Shown here in pieces: positions 1 through 17,400 of a stretch of 32,000 nucleotides of DNA; position 1 is the stretch's first letter, and each line of letters begins with the position of its first letter. The stretch covers positions 720,001 to 752,000 of the forward strand of contig NC_009073.1 of assembly GCF_000015805.1 (NCBI RefSeq). The letters run 5' to 3'. The notes under the pieces were generated by a model. The model did no database searches and was not told where the DNA came from. It saw nothing but the letters and a program-made list of their open reading frames with translations. The DNA comes from Pyrobaculum calidifontis JCM 11548 (GTDB taxonomy: Archaea > Thermoproteota > Thermoprotei > Thermoproteales > Thermoproteaceae). The position numbers and the translations under genes are program-made.

Positions 1-216
1 TCGCCGAGGGAGTTCGCTAGGCACATGGGCTACGTCAAGGTGTGGGTGAGATTCCCCGAATTCGACATGGACCAACGGCAAGGCGTCCACTGGCACCCCT
101 CAGTGGCGTATGTGACGGTGTACGCCGCGTCCAAGAGGTCCGCGGCGGCTCTTGCCGCATTGGGCGTGCCTCTCAGAGGCGCCAAGGCGGAGTTCGCCAT
201 GGAGGTAACGCCGTGA
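1..216 (+). CDS. 3' end of a hypothetical ORF entering from upstream of the window
   Basis: Frame 1 is open from nt 1 to TGA 214-216. The peptide (..GYVKVWVRFPEFDMDQRQGVHWHPSVAYVTVYAASKRSAAALAALGVPLRGAKAEFAMEVTP) is protein-like, whereas the overlapping frame-3 peptide of track ORF 42.. is Arg/Gly-rich here. The stop overlaps GTG 213-215 of the next ORF (GTGA). Confidence 0.4.
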   Translation, partial: SPREFARHMGYVKVWVRFPEFDMDQRQGVHWHPSVAYVTVYAASKRSAAALAALGVPLRGAKAEFAMEVTP

Positions 217-797
217 GTCGGGCCAATAGGCGCGCCGACCCCCTCCGCATAGCCCTTGAGAGGCTTAGGCGGGACTTCCCCGGGAAAAGCCGCTCTTGGA
301 TCAAAAGGGCTTTGTTGAGACTGCCGTATGTGCGTGAAGTAAGAGATGGCCTCTACGTCGTGGAGGGCGTGAGGGAGCTGGGGGATTGGAAGCCCCTCTA
401 CCAAGTGTGGTGGAGCGGGCGGGAGGGGCGTTGGGAGTGCACGTGTTATTATTCGACGTGGGGGTGGAGGAGGCGGAGGGGCATATGCACACACGTGGCC
501 TCTGTCCTCCTCTATCGCCGCTTCAAGAGGGCGGTGGAGGCAGTTGAGAACCGCCCCGTCTACTTCGCATCAGCTGAGGTGGAGTGTGTAAACGTGAAGG
601 TGAGGGGGTCGCTGGAGCACCGCATCACCCCCCTCGAGAAGGCTGGGTCGCTCCTCGACTTCGCCAGGGGGAGGCGGTATGTAGTTTACATAATCGCCGA
701 GGGGCCGTCTGCCGAGCTGTTGTGCGACGGGTCGCCGGTGGAGCTGGCGTGGGAGAGGCTCAGCCTAAAAGTGGCCAAGGCCCTCCTAGAGGGCTGA
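213..797 (+). CDS. SWIM-type zinc-finger protein (about 194 aa if the GTG 213 start is used)
   Basis: C-x-C-x(n)-C-x-H signature CTCYYSTWGWRRRRGICTH at nt 438-494. The frame is open to TGA 795-797. GTG 213 is preferred over track start 42 because it gives a GTGA overlap with the upstream ORF and avoids a 170-nt two-frame overlap. Confidence 0.65.
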   Translation: MSRANRRADPLRIALERLRRDFPGKSRSWIKRALLRLPYVREVRDGLYVVEGVRELGDWKPLYQVWWSGREGRWECTCYYSTWGWRRRRGICTHVASVLLYRRFKRAVEAVENRPVYFASAEVECVNVKVRGSLEHRITPLEKAGSLLDFARGRRYVVYIIAEGPSAELLCDGSPVELAWERLSLKVAKALLEG

Positions 798-1019: not shown

Positions 1020-1481
1020 ATGCCCAAACCCGCGTTTGCGGCAGTGGCGCTGGCCGCGCTTGTGCTGGCACAGCTCGCAGTGGCGCAGGCCACAACTACG
1101 CCTGCCAGCGGCGGCGGTGGCGGCGGCGTTACCAGCGTGGAGTTTTGGCAGAACATCGCCTCTGGCGTGGGGAAGTGGCTTAGGGCAATATTCGCCATCG
1201 CCTTCTGGTCTTCTCTCATCTTGTTGACCTTCTACGCCATTATGACCCAAGTGGCGCCCTCCAAGGTCTTCCGGCTGGGCGCATTGGTGGACCTCATCGA
1301 GAGCGTGAAGACTGTGTTGTTAGGCATCTTCGTCTTCACAGCCTCCGTCACCGGCATTATCGCAGGCGTGGCGGCCATAGCCAACGCCTTCGGCGCCTCC
1401 TTCGGAGTATCGCCAATCGACGTAGTAAACGCCCTCATATTCCAGCCAATAGTAGACATGGTAAAAGTGGTAACTGGGTAG
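1020..1481 (+). CDS. Secreted small membrane protein, 153 aa: signal peptide plus two long hydrophobic helices (VirB2/TrbC/TedC-type pilin-like architecture; hypothesis)
   Basis: MPKP n-region, then an 18-residue Ala/Leu/Val h-region ending AQA|TTT (A-x-A cleavage-type site, aa 22-24). Gly6 run at nt 1110-1127. Helices LRAIFAIAFWSSLILLTFYAIM and VKTVLLGIFVFTASVTGIIAGVAAIANAF are joined by the basic loop APSKVFRLG. The next ORF starts 4 nt after the stop. Confidence 0.75.
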   Translation: MPKPAFAAVALAALVLAQLAVAQATTTPASGGGGGGVTSVEFWQNIASGVGKWLRAIFAIAFWSSLILLTFYAIMTQVAPSKVFRLGALVDLIESVKTVLLGIFVFTASVTGIIAGVAAIANAFGASFGVSPIDVVNALIFQPIVDMVKVVTG

Positions 1482-1485
1482 GGCA

Positions 1486-2418
1486 ATGACGCTTACCTCA
1501 AACACGCCCCTTTTTTCCACCTCTCCTTCCCTCTCCTCGCCTACTCCCTCGCCCTCCCTAGCCCTCTTCCTCCCCTCCACAGGCATACCAGTGCTGGACG
1601 TGGGGCTGGCTGTGCTGGGGGCCATGGCCACATACGGCGCAATTCTCTGGCTCATGGGGGTTAGGCGCCTTAGGGAGGAGGCTGTGGACGCCTTTCTACA
1701 CGCCATATTCGGCGCGGCGCTGTTCGCAGTGGCCCTCGTCATTGGGAACTTGGCGGTGCAGGCCGCTTCGGCCTACTACGACTATGCCAATGTAAGCAAA
1801 TTGTGCTTCAACCTCGCCGGCCAGCCGAGCTTGCTCGACGACTATAGGCGCTGGATTAACGCCACTATGAGGTGCGCCGCGGGCAACTTCTCAAGGTACG
1901 CAGACGCCGCCGCGGCCACACTGTCTGACATGTTCACCGGCGTGGCTGTGCTCGGCTTGCTCCCCGTGGTTCAGCAGTTCGCCTTCTCCTTCATGCAGAT
2001 CCTCTTCGCCGCGGCCACAGCCGCCACTTCGCTCATGGCCGCCTCCATAGCCGCCACGGTGGCAGGCTGGCTTTTGGGAAACGTAGCCGGCATGTACCTC
2101 CTAATGCTGGCCGCCATAGCCGTAACCCACGAGAGGACGAGGGTGCTGGGGGCAATAGTGCTGGGAGTGGCAACGGCGGCGCCGGCCCTCGTGACGTTGG
2201 CAGACACGCTGGTGGCGAAGTGGCCACCCGACAGCGTCAGACTCACCGGCTGGCACCACATTGTGACGTTCTGGGACTGGGGCGCCGTCGTCGACAAGGC
2301 CAAGGCCATATACGAGGCCGCCGTGACGGCGGGCATCGGCCTGTCGGTGTTTATCGCCGTTGCGGCCGCAGTGGCGTACCTCTTCTCAAGGGTGCCCCAC
2401 GCCATTGGGGTTGAATGA
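1486..2418 (+). CDS. Polytopic integral membrane protein, 310 aa (about 6-7 TM helices; VirB6/TrbL/CedA-like in architecture only)
   Basis: Ser/Thr/Pro-rich N-terminus and multiple 20+ residue hydrophobic segments. One hydrophilic loop (aa about 95-150) carries 2 Cys and all 3 N-x-S/T sequons of the protein (NVS, NAT, NFS). The stop TGA 2416-2418 overlaps ATG 2415-2417 of the giant ORF (ATGA). Confidence 0.7.
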   Translation: MTLTSNTPLFSTSPSLSSPTPSPSLALFLPSTGIPVLDVGLAVLGAMATYGAILWLMGVRRLREEAVDAFLHAIFGAALFAVALVIGNLAVQAASAYYDYANVSKLCFNLAGQPSLLDDYRRWINATMRCAAGNFSRYADAAAATLSDMFTGVAVLGLLPVVQQFAFSFMQILFAAATAATSLMAASIAATVAGWLLGNVAGMYLLMLAAIAVTHERTRVLGAIVLGVATAAPALVTLADTLVAKWPPDSVRLTGWHHIVTFWDWGAVVDKAKAIYEAAVTAGIGLSVFIAVAAAVAYLFSRVPHAIGVE

Positions 2419-5400
2419 CCTGTGGCCCGGCGCCCCCGGCCCCGCCCGCCCCGGGGGACCTCCTATGGTGGATAGTCGCCGCCGCGGGGTTCTACTCCTT
2501 CCTGAGGGCTTGGGCTAGGCGGGAGTGGGACTGGTTTCGCCCCATCCTAGGCGCACTGATCGCCATAGTCGTAACGCCCGCCGTGATAAACTTCGTAATT
2601 GGGGGACTGTTCGGCCACCCCACCCCCCTCTACTCGGTAGAGGGCTTCACCCTCGTTCTACCCTCGCTGGAGGCCCTTGAGCGAAACGCCGCACTGACCT
2701 GCGCCGCATACGACGCACTCGCAGAAGCGGCCAAGGCTCTGGCTAACGCATACGGCTACGTCACAGCCGCCACGGCGGCCATAGGCGTTTTGATGACGGC
2801 CATATTCGTCATGGCCGTCTTCACTGGCGCGGGGGTGGCGGCCGCCGTCCCCATCCTCTGGTCGATGTACAAGGCCTACAATGTGGCCAGCGGCGTCCAC
2901 GAGGTTCTCCTGTCCTTCTTCACCATCACCTTCTCCTTCATGGCCATCGTGGGGGTGCTTAAGCACTTGGCCCAGATAGCCCTCTGGTCGCCGTGGCTGA
3001 TCACCTTCGGCGTGGCGGCGCTGTCAGTGCCTAGGCTGAGGGGGATTGGAGCCCTATTCGTGTCGCTGGCCGTCATCTCAATAGTCGTGTCGTATGTGGC
3101 TGGCGCCTATGCCGCAGACGCCTACGCAACGGCGCAGTGGGCCCAAGCCATTGCAAAATGGGCCCTCGACCTCTCAAAAGAGTGGCAGACCGAGCAGAAT
3201 CTAACGGCCGGCGGCTCACCCGCCTACGTCTACATGCAGCCCGCCCTCTGGATAGGGCATTATAACAACACCTTTTCGACGAGGGCGTTGGAGGGCCTCT
3301 ACCAAGACCTCGTCAAAGACCCAGTCCTGGGCAATAACACGAGGGCCGCCGAGGCTTGGCGTAGGGCGCTGGAGGCGTGGAAGTTCGCCTACAACACGAC
3401 CATCCTGGCCCGAAACGTAACTAACGCCCCCCTCTACGGCGGCCTCGTCGCCGCCGTTGAGTATGGGAATAAGACCTGGTTCTTCAAGAGGGGCAACGCG
3501 ACAGACGAGTTGAAGGCCCTCGTGGTGTGGCTCGACATGGACGTCCATGTCTCAAACGCCAGCCTGTGCTCCATGGGCATGCTGGCCCCCGCAGAGAAGG
3601 CTCTCCTAGACCGATTCCTCCAGCGCAGGCCTGACAAGAGGGGCGAGTTTGAGACGTTGAACGAGACGGCGCACCGCCTCTGCCGCTACCTAGAGCGGAG
3701 CGGCTTGTTGCAGACGTGGGTTCTGACGTGGGATGGGGCGTTTAGGCGGCTTGTCCAGCCCTACACCTACAACGTGACTTACCACGTTGGCTTTCAAGCG
3801 GGCTCAGCCTACGGCGTCGCCGGCGCTTGGGGCTGGGTTGTTCCGCCGGAGGGGGAGAAGTGCTACGACGCCGATGGGAAAGAGGGCGGCTGCGGCTCGC
3901 TACTGGCCTCCCTCAAGCCTGGCCTCTACAAGTACGACGCGGCGGCTGGGCAGTGGGCCGCCAAGATAGACCCGTTGCCAGGCGCCGTGAAGTCTGTGTG
4001 GAACTTCACTGTGAGGGAGGCGGCCGACTCTTTCTACGTCAGCAAGTCTGTGGACCTCTACCACTACACCGAGTACTGCCGCTGGTGCGCCCAGTGGGTC
4101 AACGGCACGTGCGTAGACTGGCGACTGTCGTGGCGGGACTGGTACGAGAGGTATAGAGTCGACTGGAACTACACCACCCGCTACTACAACGCCACCGTCG
4201 CATGGGTAGACAAGCCGTGGAGGCCCAGCCACCTCGCCCACCCCTCCTCCAAGGTGGTGCAAGTGCCTTGGACTGAAGCCATCGCCGTCGTGGTAAAGTG
4301 GCGGGAGGCCGGGCCTTGGTGGCCTGACCAGCCGGGCAACTACTGCGCAAACTGGTGGACCACTGCGCCGGACGTCTACAAGGTGGTGACGGTGTTTCAC
4401 ACGCCCCGCCAGCCGGCCGTCGGCTACGTGTACGGCTGGGCTTGGCTGTCGAGGGCAGACGTGGCGTACGCCTACAACTCCACCACCCTCATTGGACAAA
4501 TCTCCTCTAGTCCTCAGGAGGACGTGTGGATGGAAGGCGCAGTGCAGTCGGCCTACTGCGCACTGGCCATGGACCGCTACCCGTACTGGGCTGTTGACAA
4601 CGCCACGCTGAGATACGCCATTGGCAATTTGACTGCTATAAACCGCAGGGCCCTCGCCGCCGGCGTTACGTACAACAACCTCACGGCTAGGTGGTGGCAA
4701 CTGCGCCACATCGACGAGGCCTTCCAAAAGCTTGAGGCAGACGTCCAGAGGGCCATGAACTCCCCCGACCCAGAGGAGAGGAGAGACGCCCAGGTGGTGT
4801 GGAACTTGGTACAGTTCTACCGCCGAATGGCGCAGATAGACGTGGGACAGCTGGCCTTCCTCCCGCCGCCCCACGAGGAGCCGGAGGGCTACCAGCTACA
4901 CCAATACCACGTGGTGTGCATCAACTTCCACTGGAAGGCCAAGACCGCCGTAAACGGCACCACGAGGATGGAGCCCGCCGCCCTTTGGACCATCGGGGCC
5001 ACCGGCTTCCCCTTGGGCTACACAAACCTAACCGACTTCTTGATTGGGAGGCTGGCGGACTTCTACGCCCGCCTCTTTAGGAAGGGCTTTCCTCCCCCGC
5101 CCAAGAACGTCACTCTCGTGGCGTGGCTTGGGGACAGGCGCTTCGAGGTAAGGGGCTACACCCGCTTTGCCGCCGGCGGGGAGTGGTGGTGGGACGGCTC
5201 GCCGCTGCCCTACACCCCCGTCGATTATAACAAGACGGGCGCGCTTCCGGCGTCTGTGTGGGGCTTCCCCATCTACGACATATACGGCGTTGTTTTTCAA
5301 GCCCTCGTCCTAATGGCCTCGATTGCTGGTGAAGCGTGGGCTAGGATGGTGGCGGGCAGCCTATACGCTTTGGGCGCTCTTGAGGCCCTCGGCCACCTCT

Positions 5401-8400
5401 TTGGCTTTCCCACGCCGGTTCGCCTCATCTACCCACTGGTGCTAGACATTATCTCCCAGCTGGGCTACTGGCTTATGATACGCGTGGCGATTAGGGCCAA
5501 GCTCGTGGCGAGGCTTCTGAGGCCAGTGAAGGTCTACATTGATAGGGCGGGCAGGGCCGTCGCCTCTAAGATACCTCCCGCCCCAGAGTGGCTTAGGCGC
5601 GCCTTTGGCTGGTATGTGAGACACGAGCCCACGCCGCTGAGGGTGGTCAGAGTGCACATGCTCAGCGCGGTTGAGCAAGTGAAGAGGAGGTTCTGGGAGG
5701 AGCTGCGGAAAAGGCTTAGGGAGCTTGAGAGAGGGCGAATACGCGGAGAGGAGCTGGAAGAGGCGGCGCGGGAAGCCGCCAGATCGGCCGCTGAAGGTGC
5801 GAAGCAGGCGGCAAAAGAGGCCGTCAAGAGGACGTGGTACGTCCTCCAATCCCACGACGTGGTTGAGTTTGCTAGGAGGGTGTCGGGGAGGGCCGACGCC
5901 TTCTTCCGCACCATGGAGGAGAAGCTCATTGAGGCACATCCAGCCATCGCCGTTCTTCTGGCCCTCTACAGGGGGCCCTACGGGGTATTCGCCATCGTAT
6001 CCGAGGGCGCAATTAGGTGGCTTCTGCGGACTGGCCGAATCACCGCGCAGGAGGCTGAGGAGCTTAGGCGGCTTAGACACCTCTTCTGGGCCATGGCGGC
6101 AGAGTCCCGAGCCAGGGCAGTGGCGATGGAGAGGCCCAATGAAGAGGCGTTGAAGCACTACTTTGAGCATAGGGAGAAGGTGTTGCGCGTCGTCTTATCG
6201 ACGGTTGAGCAGATCAAGGAGGCTAAATCAAAAGAGGAAATAGAGAGAGCTTTGTACAGCGCCGCAGAGCACCTGGCCAGAATCGACCTAAAGGCCGTCG
6301 AGCGTGTGAGAGAGGCCTTTGAGCTGGCGGCCTTCGGCAGGAGGGTCGGCATCGGCACCACGGCCAAGCTGGCCGAAGCGCTGTGGGAAAAGCGCGTTGG
6401 GATTGAGGCCGTGGTGGAGAGGGCCAAGGAGCTACTGCGGATGCACTACGAGAGTGCTCCTCTCTCCTACGAGGAGTTGAGACATGCGGCACTAATGCGG
6501 CAGATCGTGTTAGTCAAGCCGCTCTACGCCGCCCTCGCAGAGGCTAGGCTGTACGCCGCAGAGGGCGGGGTTGAGCAGGCTAAGAGGGCATATGAGGCGT
6601 TGAAAGCCGTAAAGCCCTTTGAGCGCTTCGGCGAAGTGCAGTTGAGGGAGCTTAGGTCGATGGCGAAGAGGGCCCTCTCCCTCGAAAGGAAGTTGACAGA
6701 GGTGGAGAGGGAGATCGCAAGGGTGAGGGAGCTTTTACCGACGGCGGATGGGCAGAGGGCCGCCCTTGAGGCCCAGCTCGCAAAGCTTGAGGCCCAGAGG
6801 GCCCACATCGCCGAGAGACTAAGGGAGCTGAGGGCCCGCATACGCGTAGAGGCTGGTGAAGCAATTGAGCGCATTGCCAGAACATACCGCGGCTTCTTGG
6901 AGGACGTTAGGCGTGAAGTAGATCCAGCGTTTAGGCGGCTTAGAGACGCCCTCGTGGCGGCTGAGGTTAGGCCTAGGCTAGTCGAGGAGCTCACAAACGC
7001 CGTCAAGCGGCACGAGGAGGTGATAAGGGGGGAGGCGGCGAGGTGGAGCGAGGCAGTGCAGAGGCTAGAGAGGGCCCTCTCCACGGAGATTACTGAAGAA
7101 GACATAAGGCTGGCCAAATCGCTAGGCCTCCACCGCCTGGCAGAATACCTTGAGTACGTGAGAGAGGTTAGGGCGGCTGATGCCGCGGCTTCTCAGCCGC
7201 TGGCCGACGTCAAGGTCAAGCTGGAGAGGGCTGAGGAGGTGGTTAGAAAGCTGGCGGAGGGGAAGGCGGATAGAGCACTGGCAGAGGCGGCTGAGGCCCT
7301 TGGCCTCAAGCGAGTTAAGGCATATGCAGAGGAGCAGATCAAGTGGAGGGCGGGGGAGCCCCTCACGACGTCGTTGCTGGACGCCCTAGAGGAGGCCAGG
7401 CGCTACGCAGACGCCCTTGCCAAGGCTGGGAGGGCGTTGTCGCAGTGGCGCTCCCTTGACGTGGCCGAGCTGAGAGAGGCGGCAAAGGCCGCTAGGGAGG
7501 TGGGCCTTGAGCAGGCGGCCAAGGCCATTGAGCGCTTTGTGGAACTCAAGCAGAGGCAGGTGTCAGACACTGCGCTGGGCGAGCTTTCCAAGGCAAAGGC
7601 CGTGGCAGAGGGCTTGAAGGCGTTGTTGGAGGGCCGCCTCCTTGAGCGGCTGGCCGAGGTAAAGGCCGCCGCTGAGGCCCTAGGCCTAAAGGACGTTGAA
7701 AAAGCCGTTGTAAGGCTTTCGGCCGTCTCGCACGTCGAAAGCCTGGAAGAGGCGTACCGCGCGCTTAAGGCTCAGTTCGAAAGAGAGGGGAGAGACACGT
7801 CGCGCCTCGACGAGGCTTATCAGAGGCTGAAGAAAGTGTCGGAGGACCTGGCCAAGGCGAAGGAGGACGTCAAGGCCGCCGTTAAGAAGTACAAAGAGGT
7901 AATCAGGCGTGAGGCGGTTAGGTGGGGCGAGGGCGTCCATCAGTTGAAGGCCCTCTTCGAGTCTCAGATGTCTGCCGAAGACGCCCTAAAGGGCGTTGAA
8001 GTTGCAAAGGCGCTGGGCCTCAGGCGCGTTGAGAGGTTCTTGGAGGAGTATGTAAAATACATACCGAAGAGGGAGGAGTACTCAGTTGCGGCGACGGCGG
8101 TTAAGGCGGCTAGAGAGAAGGCCCTCTCCGTTGAACCGTTCGCCAGGAGGGAGCTGGAGGAGGCCGTGGCAAAGGCCTCCTCGGCGGAGAAATTGTTGAC
8201 GTCACTGTGCGAGTTGTACAACGTCGGTGCCGAAGAGGCGAAGCGTCTCTCCGAGTTGGCAAAGGGCGTTGGGCTTGGGGGGGCGGCGCAGTTCTTCGCC
8301 GAGTGGGGCAAGGTGGCTAAGGAGGCGTCTGAGAGGAGGGAGTTTGAGGCTCTCTCGAGGCTGGCTAAAGGCTTGGCGAAGGGCCGTCTGGCTGAGGAGG

Positions 8401-11400
8401 TGGCGTTGGCCGCCGGCGAGGGGCTTGAGGTGGGGAGGTGGCTCAGGGCAGTGGAGGGAGTAAAGCCCCTCTACGAGAGGGCGGTGGAGGAGGCCTCTAG
8501 GCTGAAGACCACGGCAGAGCTTGCAAAACGCCTCTCCGAGTCAGTCGAGAGGTGGCGCTACCTCGACGCTGGGGAGCTTAGGGCGGCCGCTCAGATGGCG
8601 AGGGAGGGAGGCTTCACCAAGACGGCTGAGTTCCTCGAAAAAGCCGCAGACTTCAAGGCCGTCGTTGAGACAGCCCGAGAGGTCTTCGAGCGGCACGAGA
8701 AGGTGTTGAAGAGACTTAGGGCACTTGAACAATCGGCGAGGCACGAGCTCTCAAAGGCCGTTACCATCGCCGAAGGCCTACGCGCGTTGTTGGAGGGAGA
8801 CTTCTACGACAGACTTTCGGAGGCCAGGAGGGCGGCTAGGGCCCTAGGCCTATCCGAAGTTGATGAGGCCCTCGCGAGGCTTGGCCGCGTGAAGCTGTCC
8901 ATCGAGCGGGTGGGCGACGAGTACGCCTACGATGTGGGCGGCGCCGTTAGGCGGGTGATGGCGGACTTCGGCGTGGACCGCCTGTTGCTGAGGGCGCCTT
9001 TGAGCGCATACGTAGTGGCGACAATAGAGGCGTCTATTGCGAGAGAGGCGGCGTCGGTGTTTAGGCAGGCCTTCGCCCGCTATGAGCGCGAGGTTGCTAC
9101 AACCGCCGTATATCTGCCAGTGAGGGAGGCGCAGAAGCTTGGCCCTGTTGTTAGCCCCATTACGGCGGCCTTCGACTTTAGGAGCTATGTGGACGAGCTG
9201 GTGAAGGCCGGCGACCTCAGGCGCTACTACTCCTCGGGAGGAAGAGCGTGGAGAGAGCTGGCCCACCTCGTGGCAAAGGCAAGCGGAGCCGTCCTCGACT
9301 TGAGAGCCGCCAGAAAGGCCCTTGAGAAAGGCGATGATGCGTCAATCGCCTTGGCAATTGCCCTGGCATATCGGGCGGCCAAGACTTACATGAGGCTTGA
9401 GGGGGACATAAGGCCCTTGGCGGACGTGGTGGCCGAGGTGAGGTACCGCCTTGGCCTGTACGACCGCACGTGGGCCGAGTTCATCGAGAAGGTGGAGGGC
9501 GAGAAGGCCAAGGCCAAGATTCTTGAGGCGTTGAGGCCTAGAACCGTGGAGGAGGCGGTAGAGCAGTTGAAGGCGGCTTGGGCCAAGTCGAATTACCACG
9601 CCCTGGAGGAGAGGCTTGGGCTGACGAGGACTTACGCGATACCGGACGCCGATAGGGCCCTTGAGTACACGGCCAAGGCCCTCACGGCGTACCGCCTAGC
9701 CGCCATGGGCTTCGAAGAGGCTTTGTCTGTGGCTAGGGCGCAGTCCTTTATCAGAACTGCTGAACGCTACCTCAGGGGCAGGCCGCTTGAAACGCCCGCG
9801 AGGGAGCAGCCGCTCTACGTGGCTAGGGCTCTGGCGAGGCCGCTTCCAGAGGTGAAGCCCTCTGCCATAGACGAAGTGGCGAGGGAGGCCGTTATTAGGC
9901 TTTTGAGAGAAGTTGAAGCTGGCGGCGCAAAGGCCAAGGCCCTCTGGCGGCAGGTGGAGGAGCTTGTGAAGGTGTCTCCCGACGCCTTTGCAGAGGTCGT
10001 GGCCTACGCCTCTTCGGCGAGGGGCCTTGCGGCGCATTGGGCCCGCCAGCTTGTTGCAAAGATGAGGAGGGAGTGGGACACGTACCGCACTCTCTGGGAG
10101 GCGCCAGTCGCCATTAGGCTTGAGCGGCTGAGGGATATCCCGGCGGCAAAGGTGGAGGCTCCCGTGCCGAGGGAGCTTGTGGCGCTGGCGTTGTGGGCTG
10201 AGCTGGCGGCCAAGGCGAGGCCCACTGCGGCCAAGGACATTGAGGCAATTAAGCGCGTCGTTGGGGAGGTGTCTCCCGCCGCGCTTGAGGAGGCGAGGCT
10301 TAGGGCCGAGCGGGTTAGGGCCGTGTTAGACGACATAGAGAAGCTGAAGGCGGTCGACGTGGAGAGGCCGGTCTACATCGCCTTCTCCTCCCTAGAGAGG
10401 GAGGTGCCGGGGGAGGACGTCAAGGCGTTGACCATCGACGAAAGAGCTGAACTGCTGAAGGCCCAGCGCTACCTGAAGCACTCAGACCCGCGCGTCGCGA
10501 GGGAGGGCGAGCTACTGGCCAAATTCGCCGCCGGCGAATTAACGAGGTCGCAACTAGCCGATGAACTGCGCAAGCTCGGCGGCCCCTACACGCAGGAGGG
10601 GTGTGGGGCAATCGAGATGCCGAATCGGCTGAAGGACATACACGCCGTTTTAACCGCCAAGCTGGCTAACGAGGTCGCAATTCTGAGAGACGTGGAGGAG
10701 CTCAGGCACGTTGCCGTCGGCACGGCCTTCCACACCGCCGTGAGGGCCGGCCTTGGCGATGAGGATGCGTGGAGAGAGCTGAGGGCGCTTGCGGCGTTAG
10801 ACAAGGCCGCTGAGAGGGCCGTCAGATACGCCGAATTGTTGCGCATTTTGAGGGCCCTCTCGGAGGGCCTTGAGCGGGTGGTTTACGAGACAGAGTTGGC
10901 AAAGCGGTGGCCGGAGTATAGGCACGTCCTCCTCGAGCGGGAATACGTCCTCAAGAGGGCTGAGGAGTTGCGCAGAGAAGGCCCGGAGAGGGCCATTGTG
11001 GCCGGTCTCCTTGAGCAGTTTGCTGAGGGTAGGATCACGAGGAGCGAATTGATCGAGGCCGCTAGGCAGAAGGGAGTTGACTTACACGAATTTTCTAGAA
11101 ATGGTGTTGAAAGAGTGCGTGGCGACGTCATTAGGGCTGTCCGCGAGGCCGCGGCCGAGTTTAAGCAGTTTGCGGGCGCTCCCCGCTCTCTCCGCGACCT
11201 GCTTGAGGGCAAGCTGCCCCGCGGCCTATACGCAAAGATGGCGGAGGAGATAGGGGTGGCAGACGTCGTCTACGCCGAGTTGGGGGTGCCGGCGAGGTAT
11301 GCCAAGTACGGCTTGTTAGAAGGCATCGAGAGGTACGTCAAAGAGCTGAAGAAGCTGGTGTTACAACTGCCCGGCGACGCCTCTAGGGCCCTCGTCGCAA

Positions 11401-14400
11401 TTGAGGCGTTGAGAGGAGAGCTGTCGGCCATCACCCCGGCCGACCTAGTGGCCGACGTGGTGAACAAGAGGGGCGAGGTAATCGCCCGCCTCAAGAAGGC
11501 GCTGGAGGAGGCGAGGGCAGAGGTTGTGAGGGCAGTCTTCGACTCGATTAGGACTGCTGGTGTCAGACGCATTCCGCGTGAGCTGTTGGAGCTGGCGGCC
11601 TCTACCCACTTTACGCCGGAGGAGTTGAGGATGTTGTTGACAGAGCTAGACGCTGTTAGGGCTGTGGAGGAGAGGGCCGTCGGGTGGCCCTCCTTCGCCG
11701 AATACACGCCGTACATCTTCGCCACGACGGACGAGGCAGTGGCGAGGGCTTGGCGCAAGGGCGGTGGGCTGGTGTACGAGGCATATGAGCTCACAGAGGC
11801 CGGCCCGCGCCGCGTCTACGTCCTAGCGCCCAAGAATGCGCCAATAGACGAAATTAGGGAGGCGTTTCTGTCGCTTAGAGGGGTTGAGATTGTGGGCGAG
11901 CCCCGCTGGATTTCCTGGGACGCCGTTGAAGCCCTTGGCTATGTCGTCGAGCGCACAGAGAAGGGCGTCGTCGTTAGGCCACGCGCCGAATATCAACTAA
12001 GTTTGGAGAAGCCTCTCCCGAGGGCTAGGGAGGCTTGGGAGGTGGTGAAGCGGTTTAGGCCGGACGTGGTGAGAGAGGCACTTGGCCACGGCTGGGAGCT
12101 GGTGCACTGGGAGGATGGCGTAGAGGCCGTCAACGCATATTTGTTCTTGCGCAAGCTTAGGGGCTGGGAGAAGTTCGAGGGCGGGGACGTGGAGCGGATG
12201 TTCGACGAGCTTCGGCGTTGGTATACGCCGGGGCTTGAGCGCCATGCCGCCGTCATTTCGCGTAGGATGTATGGCTTTGACGCCGTTGACTGGCTGAAGG
12301 GGGCCTACGCGGTGTGGGCGAGGAGCCGCGGCGAATTTGTCGCCAAGTACGTGCACAGAGACCCGGAGGCCCTCGCCCGCGTCGTCTGGTGGGCGAAGAA
12401 GTGGGCGTGGGGTAGGCTGTACGACCTGCTTGAGCTAGAGTTCAGAGACCCCACTGTCCTTAGGGCGGTGAACATCGCCGTCAAGCGCGGCTTTCTGTCG
12501 TGGGGAGAGGCGCTCGACCTCTTCCACGAGTGGGTTAGGAGGAACAACATAGCGAAGTGGGATGAGGAGGCGCTGAGGATTGCCCTCCGCGGAAACATAA
12601 CGTCGGAGGACTACGAGAGGGCCGTTCGGGCCTTCATCACCTCGGTGAAGACGGCGCAACAGCTGGAGGCCGAGCGGGAGGCGCTGGAGCGGTGGAAATT
12701 GCTACAGGAGAGGATGAGAGAAGAGGCGGAGAAGGCGAGGGCAAGGCGAGCCACCAGACTCAGGCCGGAGGCGGCTCCTAAAGAAGAAGCTAGGCCAAGG
12801 GAGGAAGTTGAGCAGAGAGAGGCCGCAGTGAAGCCGGGTGAAGAGGCGAAGGAGGCGGCTCCGAGGGAGGAGGCCAAGCCGGCGGTTGAGAAAGCTGAGG
12901 AGAAGGAGAAGCCCTCCGCCGTGGAGAAGCCGCCTACGGCCGAGGCGGCCCGCGGAGTGGAGGAGAGGAGGGCTGTCGAGGAGAAGAAGGAAGCTGAAGA
13001 GAGGAGAGAGGAGGAGTTTGTCCGCGTTGGGAAAGTCATGGTGAAGAAGGGCTATGAAGACGACGCCGTGGTGAAGGCCTTCGCCGCTGAGGACCCGCAG
13101 AACTGGTTTACAAAGCTGACGCCGGAGACCTACTTCAGGCTGAGAGAGACACTGGCGCCGGCCTACCTGCACTACCTGGAGAGGGCTAGGGAGTGGGCCG
13201 CCTCACGGGAGAGGGCCCTCTCAATACTCGCAAGCAGGCACGGCCGCATTGACATACCGAAGAGAGTCAAGGATAGGGCTGTGGAGAAGGCGAGGGCAGA
13301 GCTTGAGAAACACGCCGCCAGGCTTGTCTACCGCTACGGCGAGGAGAAGGCCCAGGCGGCCCTCGTGAAAATCGGCATCCTCCTTGAGGAGTGGGTGAGA
13401 GAGGGCGAGTTGCCAAACGCCCATGCGGAGATTTTGAGGGCTATGTGGGCTTGGGAGGGGGAGGAGAAGACGGCCAATGTGACAAGAGAGTGGGGCTTTT
13501 GGCTCTTCCGCGAGCACTTCGCAGAGCTGAAGAAAACGGCGGAGGCCCTCGGCGTTGATGTAATGCACCTCTGGAACGCCTACCGTGCCGCGCTTGAGCG
13601 GTACTTGGCCGCTGTGTTTGCCTACGGCGGCCTTGTGGAAAAGGCAGTCACGACGGTGGACAAGGCCCTCTACACGACGCTGGTCGCCGCCGGCGGCGTC
13701 GCATTGGCTGAGGCGTTGCAAGGCGTCGTTAGGCCTGAGATCGTCTACACGGTGTCGTCTGCCGCCTCCCTCGCCTTAGCGGGTAGGTACAGGGAGGCCG
13801 TTGACGTCATCAAGACAGCGGTGCACAACGTCGAGCTGGCGGTGAGGCGCGTCGCGGGCGAGGTTAGAGTCGCCGTTGAGCGCCTCTATGAGGCCATAGT
13901 CGAAGCCGTCGCCAGATTGCTACAGTGGCTTGGCGAGCACTGGCGCGTACTGGCGTTTGTCACAGCCGCGGTGGCGGCCGGCTTGTTGACGTGGATGGCG
14001 GCTCAGCAGATACTGGCCGACGTCGACATGGCGCAGTTTGCCAAACTGGCCGCCGGCGGATTCTTCGGCTTGGCCGGCGTTAAAAAGGTCGACGTTGACA
14101 AAGCCTTAGACGACGTGTTGAGCGGGCTTAGGGCAATGGAGGGCCTTGAGAGGGGCGGGCTCGCCGGCCACGTCTCTAGGGGCTACGCGTCGGCCGACTT
14201 TGCCCGCCTTGTTGAAGAGGCTGTTAAGGCCAGGCTGAGGGCTGAGGCGGAGGCGGCCGAGGCCGGGCGCTTGATAAGGGCCAAGCTTGCGGGCGGGGCG
14301 GCGCCGCGGGGCGACTTCGATCGCTTTGCCTTAAACGCCGCGGCGGTTGCAGACACGGCGCTTGGCCTCGTTTACGAGGCCCTGAGGCAGAAGTGGAGGG

Positions 14401-17400
14401 CCGTGGCTAGACCCGGCATTGTGGAGAACTACGCCCATGTGGACAAGAAGTTTGCCGAAGTGTTCAACGTGCGCGAGAGGGACGTGGTGCACTTCCTGCG
14501 CTATGATGTAGGAGATATAGCATATGGAGACGCCAAGACAGAGGGAGCTGTCGTGTTGGTTTTCCTGGGTGGTGAAAAGATCATAAGGGTGGAGGTGTTG
14601 GCCAAGTCCGTCGCCGGCCTCCCAATACGCTTTAAGGAAGTGGAGTGGGGTGGAGGGAGGTGGGTTTGGTTGGCCACTGCTATGATTAACAAGCCCAAGA
14701 ACTATGTGGCGCGCATCGAGCTCAGATTTACTGAGAAGCCGGAGGTCGAGGTGAGGGGCGGCGCCGCAGGCGTTGAGGGGCTTAGGGGCCTACTGGCGAC
14801 GGACGCCTATGGGAAAGAGATAGGAACCCCAGACCCGCTTCTCGTCAAGCTTTTCATCGACCACTTCGAGAAAGCGAAAGTCGAGGTGGCTGGGGTGACG
14901 CTAACTAAGGCCGGCTTCTCGCTTCAGTTCAGAGCTGTCACACTGGACGAAAAGCCGTTTGAAGAGCTATTCGGCGACATAGCCAAGAAGTATGGGAAGG
15001 ACTTGTGGGAAATCATGAAGAAGACCAGAGAAATGTGGCGGGAGGCTGTGCGCAAGTTGTACAAAGACATCATGCGCGTGGCCAATGAGGCGGCCGAGGT
15101 GGGCAAGGTGAAGGGCGTTGAGGCGGGGAGGGAGGCCCTCGTCGAGGGTCTAAAGCGCTTGTTTGAGGAGAGGGAGCGGGAGGCGCTAAGCGCCGGCCGC
15201 CTCGACGATGCCCTCGCGATTGCAGTGGCGGGCCGCCTTCTGTTGGGCATTGTGAACAGCCCAAGGGAATGGTTCTCGCTGTTGGCCGGCGATGGCGTAG
15301 TGGACATTGGCGGCAAAACGCTGGGCTTCTCAGCCAAATACGCCGAGGTTGCCGAGGTCGTTCTCCGCCTGTTGGCCGCGTGGGCTGGCGCATATGGAGC
15401 GGGAATAAGGGCGAAGGAGCGTATGGCCGTGTATTCCAGCGCCGACGACATAGTCAAAGTCCTTGGGGCCATCTTCAAGGGCGAGGTGTTGAAATACGCG
15501 GAGTCCTCGGCAAGGTCGTGGAGTGGGCTTGCCGGCTCACATACACCTAAGGTCATCTCGCTTCTGGCCCTCGCCCAGCTCCTCGGCGTAGTCGAGGGGA
15601 AGTGGGCCGTGGAGCTGTGGCTCGCCCACAAGGCCGCAACGACGCTTGCGGAGCCGGAGGTGGCCCAAGCGCTCGACAAGTTCTTTGCCAGAGTTGAGGG
15701 CGTCGGCGAAGTGAAGTGGGAAGAGAGGGGCGTCAACCTCTACTTCAAGGTGAGGGGTTTAGAGGATGTCGAGCGCACAGCTACGCTGAAGTTGTACACA
15801 GACTTCCATAACTTCCACCTCTCCTGCGACTCGTGTAACGAGGTCTCGGTGAGGAGGGTTCTTGAGACTGTGGCCGAGTGGCTGAGGCCTGCGGTGGAGC
15901 TGTTGGAGGAGCGGCTGAGGCTGGCCGCCGAAAAGCAAAAGTGGCCGAGGTGGCATTGGAACTCTCTCGACCTCCCGGCAGAGGTGGGCTGGCCCATGTT
16001 TTTAAAACTGTGGAGGGTGTATAATATGTCTCTCCGCGTGGAGGAGGGCGGGCGGGAGCTACTCCGCGTGGAGGTTCTGGAGGCTAGGGCGGATGGGACG
16101 GCGAAGTTCCGCCTTTGGTTCTACAAGTGGCGCGAGACTAGGCCAGACCAGCCGTACGTGGACGTCGAAATAGAGCCATATCAGCGCAAAGGCGACAGTA
16201 TCGCCTTTAGAGGTAGCGTCTATGCCAACAAGGCTAAGGGTATTCTCAGAGACCACTTGGCCGAGATTGCCGATCTGCTGAAGCGCGAGGGGGTGGAGGG
16301 CGTGTCGCTGGTGCGTGACGGCAAAGTGCTTGAATTCTCAAGCGCTTTCCGCGACTCCGTCCTCGGAAGGCTTAGCATTAGGCCGGAGCTCCCGCCGGGC
16401 GAGCCGCCAGCTGTGCAGTACTTGGGCGGCCTTAGGTTTAGAGTGGGCGATAAAGAGGTGGAGTTCGGCGAGAGGGTCTTTGGCAAGACGAGAGAGTTCT
16501 ACGCAGAGCCGATGTTTCTGTCTAGAGAGGAGGCCGAACGCTTCGCATCGTCGCTTAAGGCCGTGGGAGTAGACGCAAGGATAGTCGGCAACGTGGTTAG
16601 GCTAGACAGCGACTCCTTCTTCGGTCTGCTCGCCGTTACAAATGCCACGCCGCCAGGCCTTACGCCGCTGTACCGCTCCAATGATCTACAGGTATACGCC
16701 AGCGCCGAGGGCGGCCGTATGCGCTTCTACTTCGCCGTAAAGCACGAGGGAGTGTGGAGGGCCGTCGAGGGGCTGTACGAGGAGAGAGCTCTCGAGCTCT
16801 GGCGCAAAGAGCGCGAAGTCCTTGAAGCCGTCAGAGACGCTGTGGCGAGAGCGCTTAAGGAGCTGGGCCACCCGGCGGAGGTGGGAGAGCCGAAGGAGAG
16901 AGTGGACGAAAAAGGTAGCGCTGTAGGCCACCGCCTCCTCCTATACGGCCCCCACCTCAAGCCGTTTCTGGAGCACGCCGTTAGGCACGTAGAGGCAAAG
17001 CCTGTCGAGGTGCGGCTGGAGGGGAGACACATCGTTATCAGTGCAGGCAATGTTAAGGCAGAGGTTGAGTTCAAACTGTTGAAGCACAGGGAGGCCGAAT
17101 TCCTCGTGGCTCAAGACGTGGTACAGACTCTCGCCCTTTACAAGTCGCTCAAGGAGATGGGCGTGCCCGTGGAGATTACGCCAGAGGGCGTCAAGATTGA
17201 CAGCGAGACGCTGTGGGCCCTCGTGGCAATAGCAGTTGAGAGGGATACGCCCAGCGCGTTGCCCGCCGAGGTTATGCCTGGCGTAAAGCTCTTGAAAGTA
17301 TATAATGTCGGCAACATGCATATGTACATATTCTGCGCCGAAGGCGACCACTACTACTTCGTCGTAAAGACTGGGCAGGAGTGGAGAGCGGCAGGCGGAA

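Follow-up and report, generated by a model that had tools for sequence, protein, structure and literature searches.

The window analysed here is a stretch of 32,000 nucleotides from Pyrobaculum calidifontis JCM 11548 (contig NC_009073.1, positions 720,001 to 752,000, forward strand). The gene in question is an open reading frame (ORF) near its beginning, which an earlier reading of the bare sequence, called the original prediction below, had described as encoding a secreted filament subunit of the VirB2/TraA/CedA1/TedC type. This ORF of 153 amino acids (aa) occupies 1020..1481 on the plus strand, stop included, exactly as had been described and with the sequence that was quoted; its start is the first possible start codon. 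In an exact-sequence look-up the product was letter-for-letter identical to WP_011849449.1 / ABO08191.1 / UniRef100_A3MU74 from P. calidifontis JCM 11548. The next two ORFs are exact matches to WP_011849450.1 and WP_011849451.1 of the same genome, and the window is therefore a piece of the P. calidifontis chromosome.

When the 153-aa protein was searched against the sequences of all PDB chains, there was a single match, the 112-aa chain A of 8DFT ("Pilin protein"). Residues 38-149 are identical to the full chain at 111 of 112 positions (E 7.5e-64). The corresponding study determined the structure of native P. calidifontis pili by cryo-electron microscopy (cryo-EM) at 4.0 A (Beltran et al. 2023, Nat Commun 14:666, PMC9905601). 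The subunit was recognised straight from the cryo-EM map as Pcal_0765 (WP_011849449) and named TedC, with Ted standing for Thermoproteales exchange of DNA (PMC9905601). The window protein and the published TedC have the same 153-aa sequence, and tedA (Pcal_0766) is the next gene in both, so that the comparison with the published P. calidifontis pilus subunit, which the original prediction had proposed, resolves to identity. The best explanation, and one of which we are nearly certain, is that the gene is tedC (Pcal_0765), encoding the single major subunit of the Ted pilus; the assignment to this class of filament subunits is thus supported. The ORF is a real gene and not a chance ORF, since the exact protein is present on 16 contigs and its chain is modelled in 8DFT. 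The mismatch to the deposited chain is at residue 129, which is Gly in the genome (GGA, 1404-1406) and nearly invariantly Gly in the homologues, whereas the 8DFT chain has Ala; the difference probably arose in modelling or deposition, the resolution being 4.0 A. The protein, the filament structure, the bound lipid and the gene neighbourhood were already published in 2023, and the pilin finding is not new. TedC is still labelled "hypothetical protein" in the databases searched, and the case serves as a control, in which a pilin was recognised from raw sequence without a Pfam, NCBIfam or PADLOC match. The gene and the parts of its product map to the window as follows, where AF2 denotes an AlphaFold2 model.

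1020..1481, plus strand: tedC (Pcal_0765), 153-aa pre-pilin of the Ted pilus (exact match to WP_011849449.1; 111/112 to 8DFT_A)
1020..1085, plus strand: Sec-type signal peptide, residues 1-22, with a predicted signal peptidase I cut between A22 and Q23 (hydrophobicity, SignalP in the paper, conservation)
1086..1130, plus strand: Thr/Gly-rich linker of the mature pilin, residues 23-37, disordered (absent from the cryo-EM map; AF2)
1137..1253, plus strand: helix alpha1, residues 40-78, the main tetraether-lipid contact (AF2 DSSP; contacts from PMC9905601)
1254..1274, plus strand: inter-helix turn and basic motif A79-P-S-K-V-F-R85 (conservation; AF2 break at 79-81)
1263..1403, plus strand: helix alpha2, residues 82-128 (AF2 DSSP H82-128; K97 invariant)
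1413..1475, plus strand: helix alpha3, residues 132-152 (AF2 DSSP; the extra helix in PMC9905601)

The published cryo-EM shows that TedC subunits make up a lipid-containing tube outside the cell. Within the native filaments, the segment 38-149 forms three hydrophobic helices; the model begins at residue 38, and residues 23-37 are taken as disordered (PMC9905601). Each TedC subunit is accompanied by one bipolar tetraether lipid, modelled as the glycerol dialkyl glycerol tetraether GDGT-0, which makes most of its contacts with alpha1, Ser64 among them, and is held between it and alpha2 of the adjacent subunit (PMC9905601). The tube is hollow and helical, with a rise of 5.0 A, a twist of 74.2 degrees and right-handed 5-start strands, and its lumen is wide enough for single-stranded DNA (ssDNA) and too narrow for double-stranded DNA (PMC9905601). 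As the original prediction had anticipated, the fold is helical, both in the AF2 model and in the solved structure, and the protein is found in extracellular filaments.

In a Kyte-Doolittle scan the N-terminal segment 3-27 came out as hydrophobic, as did further stretches between about 53 and 131. The signal peptide proposed from the sequence alone is well founded; the proposed cut after AQA24 is less well supported than a site two residues earlier. SignalP places the cut within AVAQA, after AVA, between residues 22 and 23, with a probability of 0.97 (PMC9905601). Across the alignment, whose most distant members have 24-35% identity, Q23 is never replaced and A22 hardly ever, and every sequence has A, V or I at -3. 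Position 24 can be A, T, N, Q or S in the family, and this pattern of a conserved A22/Q23 followed by a variable residue favours cleavage between the two conserved positions. In close relatives that read ...LALAANN..., a cut after residue 24 would put Asn at -1. From the family conservation and the paper's SignalP result, predicted cleavage is more likely between A22 and Q23 than after AQA24; the family-wide conservation that backs this site is a small addition of the present analysis.

The AF2 model of TedC was built on a 25-sequence alignment and is of low confidence, with a predicted local distance difference test (pLDDT) score of 64. Its secondary structure consists of a signal helix (3-26), disorder (27-39) and helices at 40-78, 82-128 and 132-152; pLDDT is below 50 over residues 25-38. 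Taken from hydrophobicity, AF2 and the alignments, a Sec signal peptide, a variable linker, three hydrophobic helices and a P-x-x-x-x-R turn are all present. The Thr/Gly-rich mature N-terminus noted earlier, TTTPASGGGGGG, lies at residues 25-36, and the basic loop APSKVFRLG at residues 79-87. The family consensus of the turn is P-[STIA]-[KRTQ]-x-x-R, and P80, R85 and K97 are invariant down to 24-35% identity. Two hydrophobic helices of 25-35 residues had been expected; the helices are there, but AF2 makes them longer, 39 residues (40-78) and 47 residues (82-128). What had been taken for a small amphipathic C-terminal tail is instead a third helix (132-152 in AF2). This is alpha3 of the published structure, an additional hydrophobic helix that the mature P. 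calidifontis pilin has and that CedA1 and the bacterial VirB2/TraA pilins lack (PMC9905601). The mature protein is indeed longer than VirB2, about 131 aa against 74 aa in the paper's numbering (PMC9905601), because of the disordered 15-residue N-terminal linker and helix alpha3, which account for the excess.

The set of close relatives comprised 28 TedC homologues with 72-92% identity, and an exhaustive hidden Markov model search of 1.84 billion representative proteins returned only 14 proteins at E up to 0.001. A search of genome contigs with the closer TedC alignment confirmed no relative, and it missed P. calidifontis and P. oguniense themselves as well. Among the homologues, the linker that joins the signal peptide to V37-T38 differs in both length and composition. 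It contains N-x-S/T sequons in 17 of the 36 distinct family members, and these proteins have nearly none elsewhere. A scan bore out the earlier statement that P. calidifontis TedC has no such sequon in the whole protein; its linker offers only Thr, Ser and Gly (TTTPAS, G6). The family sequences suggest that the linker is an exposed, often glycosylated tail, and such a tail would fit the diffuse peripheral density reported for the Ted pilus (PMC9905601). The sequon hot spot in the exposed N-terminal linker of about half of the homologues is also a small addition made here.

CedA1 of Aeropyrum pernix (APE_0220a, PDB 8DFU) and TedC are both hydrophobic helical-hairpin pilins in a lipid-containing tube. 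Both are encoded beside a VirB6-like gene (CedA or TedA, respectively) and work with a VirB4-like ATPase. Apart from alpha3, which only TedC has, the two differ in their signal peptide, predicted to be cleaved in TedC and lacking in CedA1, and in their lipids, with two C25,C25-diethers per CedA1 subunit and one tetraether per TedC subunit. The bacterial pilins VirB2/TrbC and TraA (F, pED208, pKpQIL) resemble TedC in having a signal peptide cut by signal peptidase I (predicted in the case of TedC) and two long hydrophobic helices with a short turn between them. The bacterial VirB2/TraA pilins and TedC also have in common a 1:1 ratio of pilin to lipid, 5-start helical tubes and VirB6/VirB4 partner machinery; four lipids are contacted per TedC subunit, as in VirB2 (PMC9905601). 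In contrast to the bacterial pilins, the lipid of TedC is a membrane-spanning tetraether, and unlike the bacterial conjugative pilin systems, the Ted locus is chromosomal with no known relaxase.

Several observations weigh against reading this protein as a VirB2-like pilin that serves in DNA exchange. It matches no Pfam, NCBIfam or PADLOC model, and the pilin profiles PF04956 (TrbC/VirB2), PF18895 (T4SS_pilin) and PF05513 (TraA) gave no match at their curated cut-offs. No sequence similarity to CedA1, VirB2 or TraA PDB chains was found with either the single sequence or a profile, and the PDB sequence searches with TedC did not recover the CedA1 chain of 8DFU at E up to 10. Foldseek with the AF2 monomer (pLDDT 64) found nothing, 8DFT included; the evidence for a structural relationship with VirB2/TraA is therefore the published comparison, in which the root-mean-square deviation between the CedA1 and TedC subunits is a loose 6.5 A. 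The cleavage site of the signal peptide is a predicted one. DNA transfer has been demonstrated neither for P. calidifontis nor for any Ted system. The passage of ssDNA through conjugative pili has no experimental evidence (PMC9905601). When 16 members of the diverse alignment were scanned singly, TrbC/VirB2 (PF04956) was the most-matched Pfam family (4 of 16, best E 0.0015, all sub-threshold), which is a faint sequence echo of the structure-based homology argued in PMC9905601.

The genes that surround tedC in the window are the following.

25..216, plus strand: 3' end of a gene for a 296-aa AAA_16-family ATPase, which starts before the window (PF13191; L001 346-1236, L003 8307-9197)
213..797, plus strand: 194-aa protein with a SWIM-like CxC...CxH motif, upstream of tedC (gene called in L001 and L003)
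1486..2418, plus strand: tedA (Pcal_0766), 310-aa polytopic membrane protein, VirB6/CedA-like (exact match to WP_011849450.1)
2415..17591, plus strand: Pcal_0767, 5058-aa ORF whose ATG overlaps the tedA stop (ATGA; exact match to WP_011849451.1)

The tedA gene starts 4 nt past the tedC stop, and a hydrophobicity scan of TedA gave multiple hydrophobic segments. Pcal_0766 was named TedA as a VirB6/CedA-like protein with seven predicted transmembrane (TM) segments; its match to CedA has an HHpred probability of 98.6, and its relation to VirB6 is distant (PMC9905601). tedA also follows tedC directly in L006 (P. oguniense), L008, L010, L011 and L014. We did not reproduce the VirB6 link: HMMER searches against PDB sequences with the single TedA sequence and with a 6-sequence profile gave no VirB6 match, and the published link needs sensitivity at the level of HHpred. 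Residues 39-89 of TedA have a weak match to the Pfam T4SS_pilin family (E 0.035, below threshold). A pilin-like N-terminus such as that reported for CedA/CedA1 was sought by comparing TedC with TedA (BLASTP and hhalign, the latter with shallow profiles), and no similarity was found. One metagenomic representative of 431 aa (P0037) is a single-ORF fusion of a TedC-like pilin (about 1-140) and a TedA-like polytopic protein; the TedA-like part is 42% identical to TedA of the window, and the fusion is possibly an assembly or gene-calling artefact. As a sequence, the fusion would support a tight functional link between TedC and TedA.

TedB, a VirB4-like ATPase, is encoded upstream (PMC9905601). A later paper added a further ATPase, TedD, to the Ted locus and pointed out that other genes there may belong to the system. 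The metagenomic contig L003 carries an identical tedC and shows the locus upstream of the window. Its gene order towards tedC is a CbiA/ParA-like gene, a 645-aa ATPase with DUF87, HerA_C and TrwB_AAD_bind matches (about 7 kb upstream of tedC), a Rad51/RadA-family gene (PF08423, L003 7207-8145), the AAA_16 ATPase and the 194-aa protein. The genes of the P. oguniense locus are arranged similarly, even though the TedC proteins of the two species share only 35% identity. The start of the gene for the 194-aa protein overlaps the stop of the preceding AAA_16 ATPase gene, and its product has a weak Pfam SWIM zinc-finger match, which at E 0.011 falls short of the cut-off. The P. oguniense locus, too, has an AAA_16 ATPase gene with a 193-aa gene after it, a likeness of position and length. 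The text of PMC9905601 speaks of a "Rad50 recombinase" coating 3' single-stranded tails. This wording reads like RadA/Rad51 and is likely a naming slip; it may mean the upstream Rad51-family gene. A reading of the locus as a defence system was dropped, as PADLOC returned nothing.

The giant gene after tedA, Pcal_0767, carries the database name "chromosome segregation ATPase-like protein". Its product has hydrophobic helices at about 40-236 and a further hydrophobic segment near 953-974. The topology predicted from this includes an ectodomain of about 700 aa, and 22 of the 26 N-x-S/T sequons fall within residues 262-939. The last ~4000 aa are rich in Glu, Lys, Arg, Ala and Leu, helical and predicted to be cytoplasmic, with internal repeats. 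Searches of the protein against Pfam, NCBIfam and PADLOC gave no family, and strict Walker A, Walker B and ABC signature motifs are absent; a lone loose P-loop-like string is found at residue 4685. A Rad50/SMC reading of Pcal_0767 was rejected, given no SMC_N, AAA_23 or Rad50 profile match, no ATPase motifs, and an N-terminus made of TM helices followed by an ectodomain. On its sequence, the SMC/Rad50-type database name is unsupported. An AF2 model of the first 1040 residues, made with a 2-sequence alignment, had a pLDDT of 29.8.

The N-terminal module of Pcal_0767 lies directly after tedA in all of the other divergent Ted loci that have downstream sequence (5/5). The homologue in P. oguniense has 4372 aa (24% identity over ~1000 residues, E 4e-47), and all 24 sequons in the 3030 residues examined fall within 223-832. 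A Thermoproteus metagenome-assembled genome encodes a partial homologue of at least 1532 aa (E 6e-51). On the metagenomic contigs there are a complete homologue of 1484 aa (L014, E 1e-68 over residues 20-1305), one of 848 aa (L010, 26% identity, with five Cys and many Trp invariant) and a partial one of 187 aa (L011, a weak N-terminal match with E 1e-4). In the window, L008 and L014, the start of the giant gene and the stop of tedA share 4 nt. A gene for a large membrane glycoprotein is thus conserved after tedA and often translationally coupled to it, which is a third small addition of this analysis. The conserved module of the family comprises 4-5 TM helices, an ectodomain that is rich in Cys and Trp and bears 16-31 sequons, and a further TM helix; the cytoplasmic tail ranges from absent (in the 848-aa protein) to ~4000 aa. 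Word-indexed homologue searches with the module, which were saturated at 8000 candidates, gave at least one match. The C-terminal part of the P. oguniense giant gene has a match to the Pfam family PaRep2b.

A literature search by identifier found no paper citing Pcal_0767, A3MU76 or WP_011849451, and the conservation of the module after tedA may be new. We tentatively suggest, with the chances somewhat below even, that Pcal_0767 is a third core component of Ted machines, as yet without a name. Its N-terminal module could then sit beside TedA at the base of the pilus or act as an element of cell-cell recognition or mating-pair formation, and the helical cytoplasmic tail could be a scaffold for DNA-processing factors. 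If Pcal_0767 is part of the machine, it offers a lead on the cell-surface and cytoplasmic partners of archaeal DNA-exchange systems.

For TedC itself, we propose that the pre-pilin is inserted via Sec and that signal peptidase I then cleaves it, most probably behind A22; the mature pilin would start with Gln and have a disordered tail of 15 residues rich in Thr and Gly. Homology and gene order suggest that the membrane-embedded pilin would be extracted together with its lipid and polymerised on the VirB6-like TedA. On the same grounds, the energy for assembly would come from the VirB4/HerA-like ATPase (TedB), whose gene is ~7 kb upstream, outside the window. From the analogy with the Ced system of Sulfolobales, we infer a role of TedC in DNA transfer, in which cells would use the pilus to exchange or import each other's chromosomal ssDNA for recombinational repair.

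It is unlikely, though worth serious consideration, that the TedC pilus serves adhesion, aggregation or non-DNA secretion and not DNA exchange. No DNA-transfer assay exists for Ted, and P. calidifontis aggregates readily; however, this aggregation has been ascribed to separate TasA-like bundling pili (PMC9905601). The linker sequons of about half of the TedC homologues and the heavily sequon-rich surface domain encoded by the next-but-one gene, Pcal_0767, would suit cell-cell recognition. In contrast, the genes of the Ted locus include those for a VirB4/HerA-like ATPase, a ParA/VirC1-like protein and a Rad51-family protein, DNA import in Sulfolobales is carried out by the homologous Ced system, and a hollow lipid-lined tube is characteristic of mating pili.

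We give a low probability to the Ted locus being part of an integrated conjugative element that exports its own DNA, as opposed to a domesticated chromosomal import system. The P. oguniense Ted locus (CP003316.1 507,820-528,290) lies inside a 485-530 kb region that is tagged paREP2, and this region is present in P. oguniense and absent from the largely syntenic P. arsenaticum. Together with the PaRep2b association, the position of the P. oguniense locus hints that Ted loci sit in the flexible genome. The TedC family is also small and patchy, with its 14 representatives among 1.84 billion proteins, and genes for ribbon-helix-helix and helix-turn-helix regulators adjoin tedC on several metagenomic contigs. 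G+C is higher in the Ted part of the window (0.60-0.65) than in the housekeeping part (0.54-0.60), but this is largely explained by the Ala/Glu/Arg-rich giant ORF. Against an element of this kind, there is no tRNA gene in the window, no integrase is among the Pfam labels listed for the called genes upstream of tedC, the Ted locus abuts ordinary housekeeping genes, and domestication was argued for in PMC9905601.

The reading that TedC simply stays in the membrane as an integral protein, its N-terminal anchor left uncleaved, and is no filament subunit has next to no chance of being correct: CedA1 was formerly thought to be an integral membrane protein (PMC9905601) and TedC has three or four hydrophobic segments, but the solved structure has already refuted this, with the TedC chain built into the density of extracellular filaments (PDB 8DFT) and no density before residue 38.

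The base composition of the window also differs in strand asymmetry. Along the giant ORF (6001..17000) the GC skew is strongly positive (0.16-0.30), whereas it is ~0 to 0.1 elsewhere in the window. Both this skew and the high G+C are probably a consequence of the Glu/Lys/Arg/Ala-rich coding sequence.

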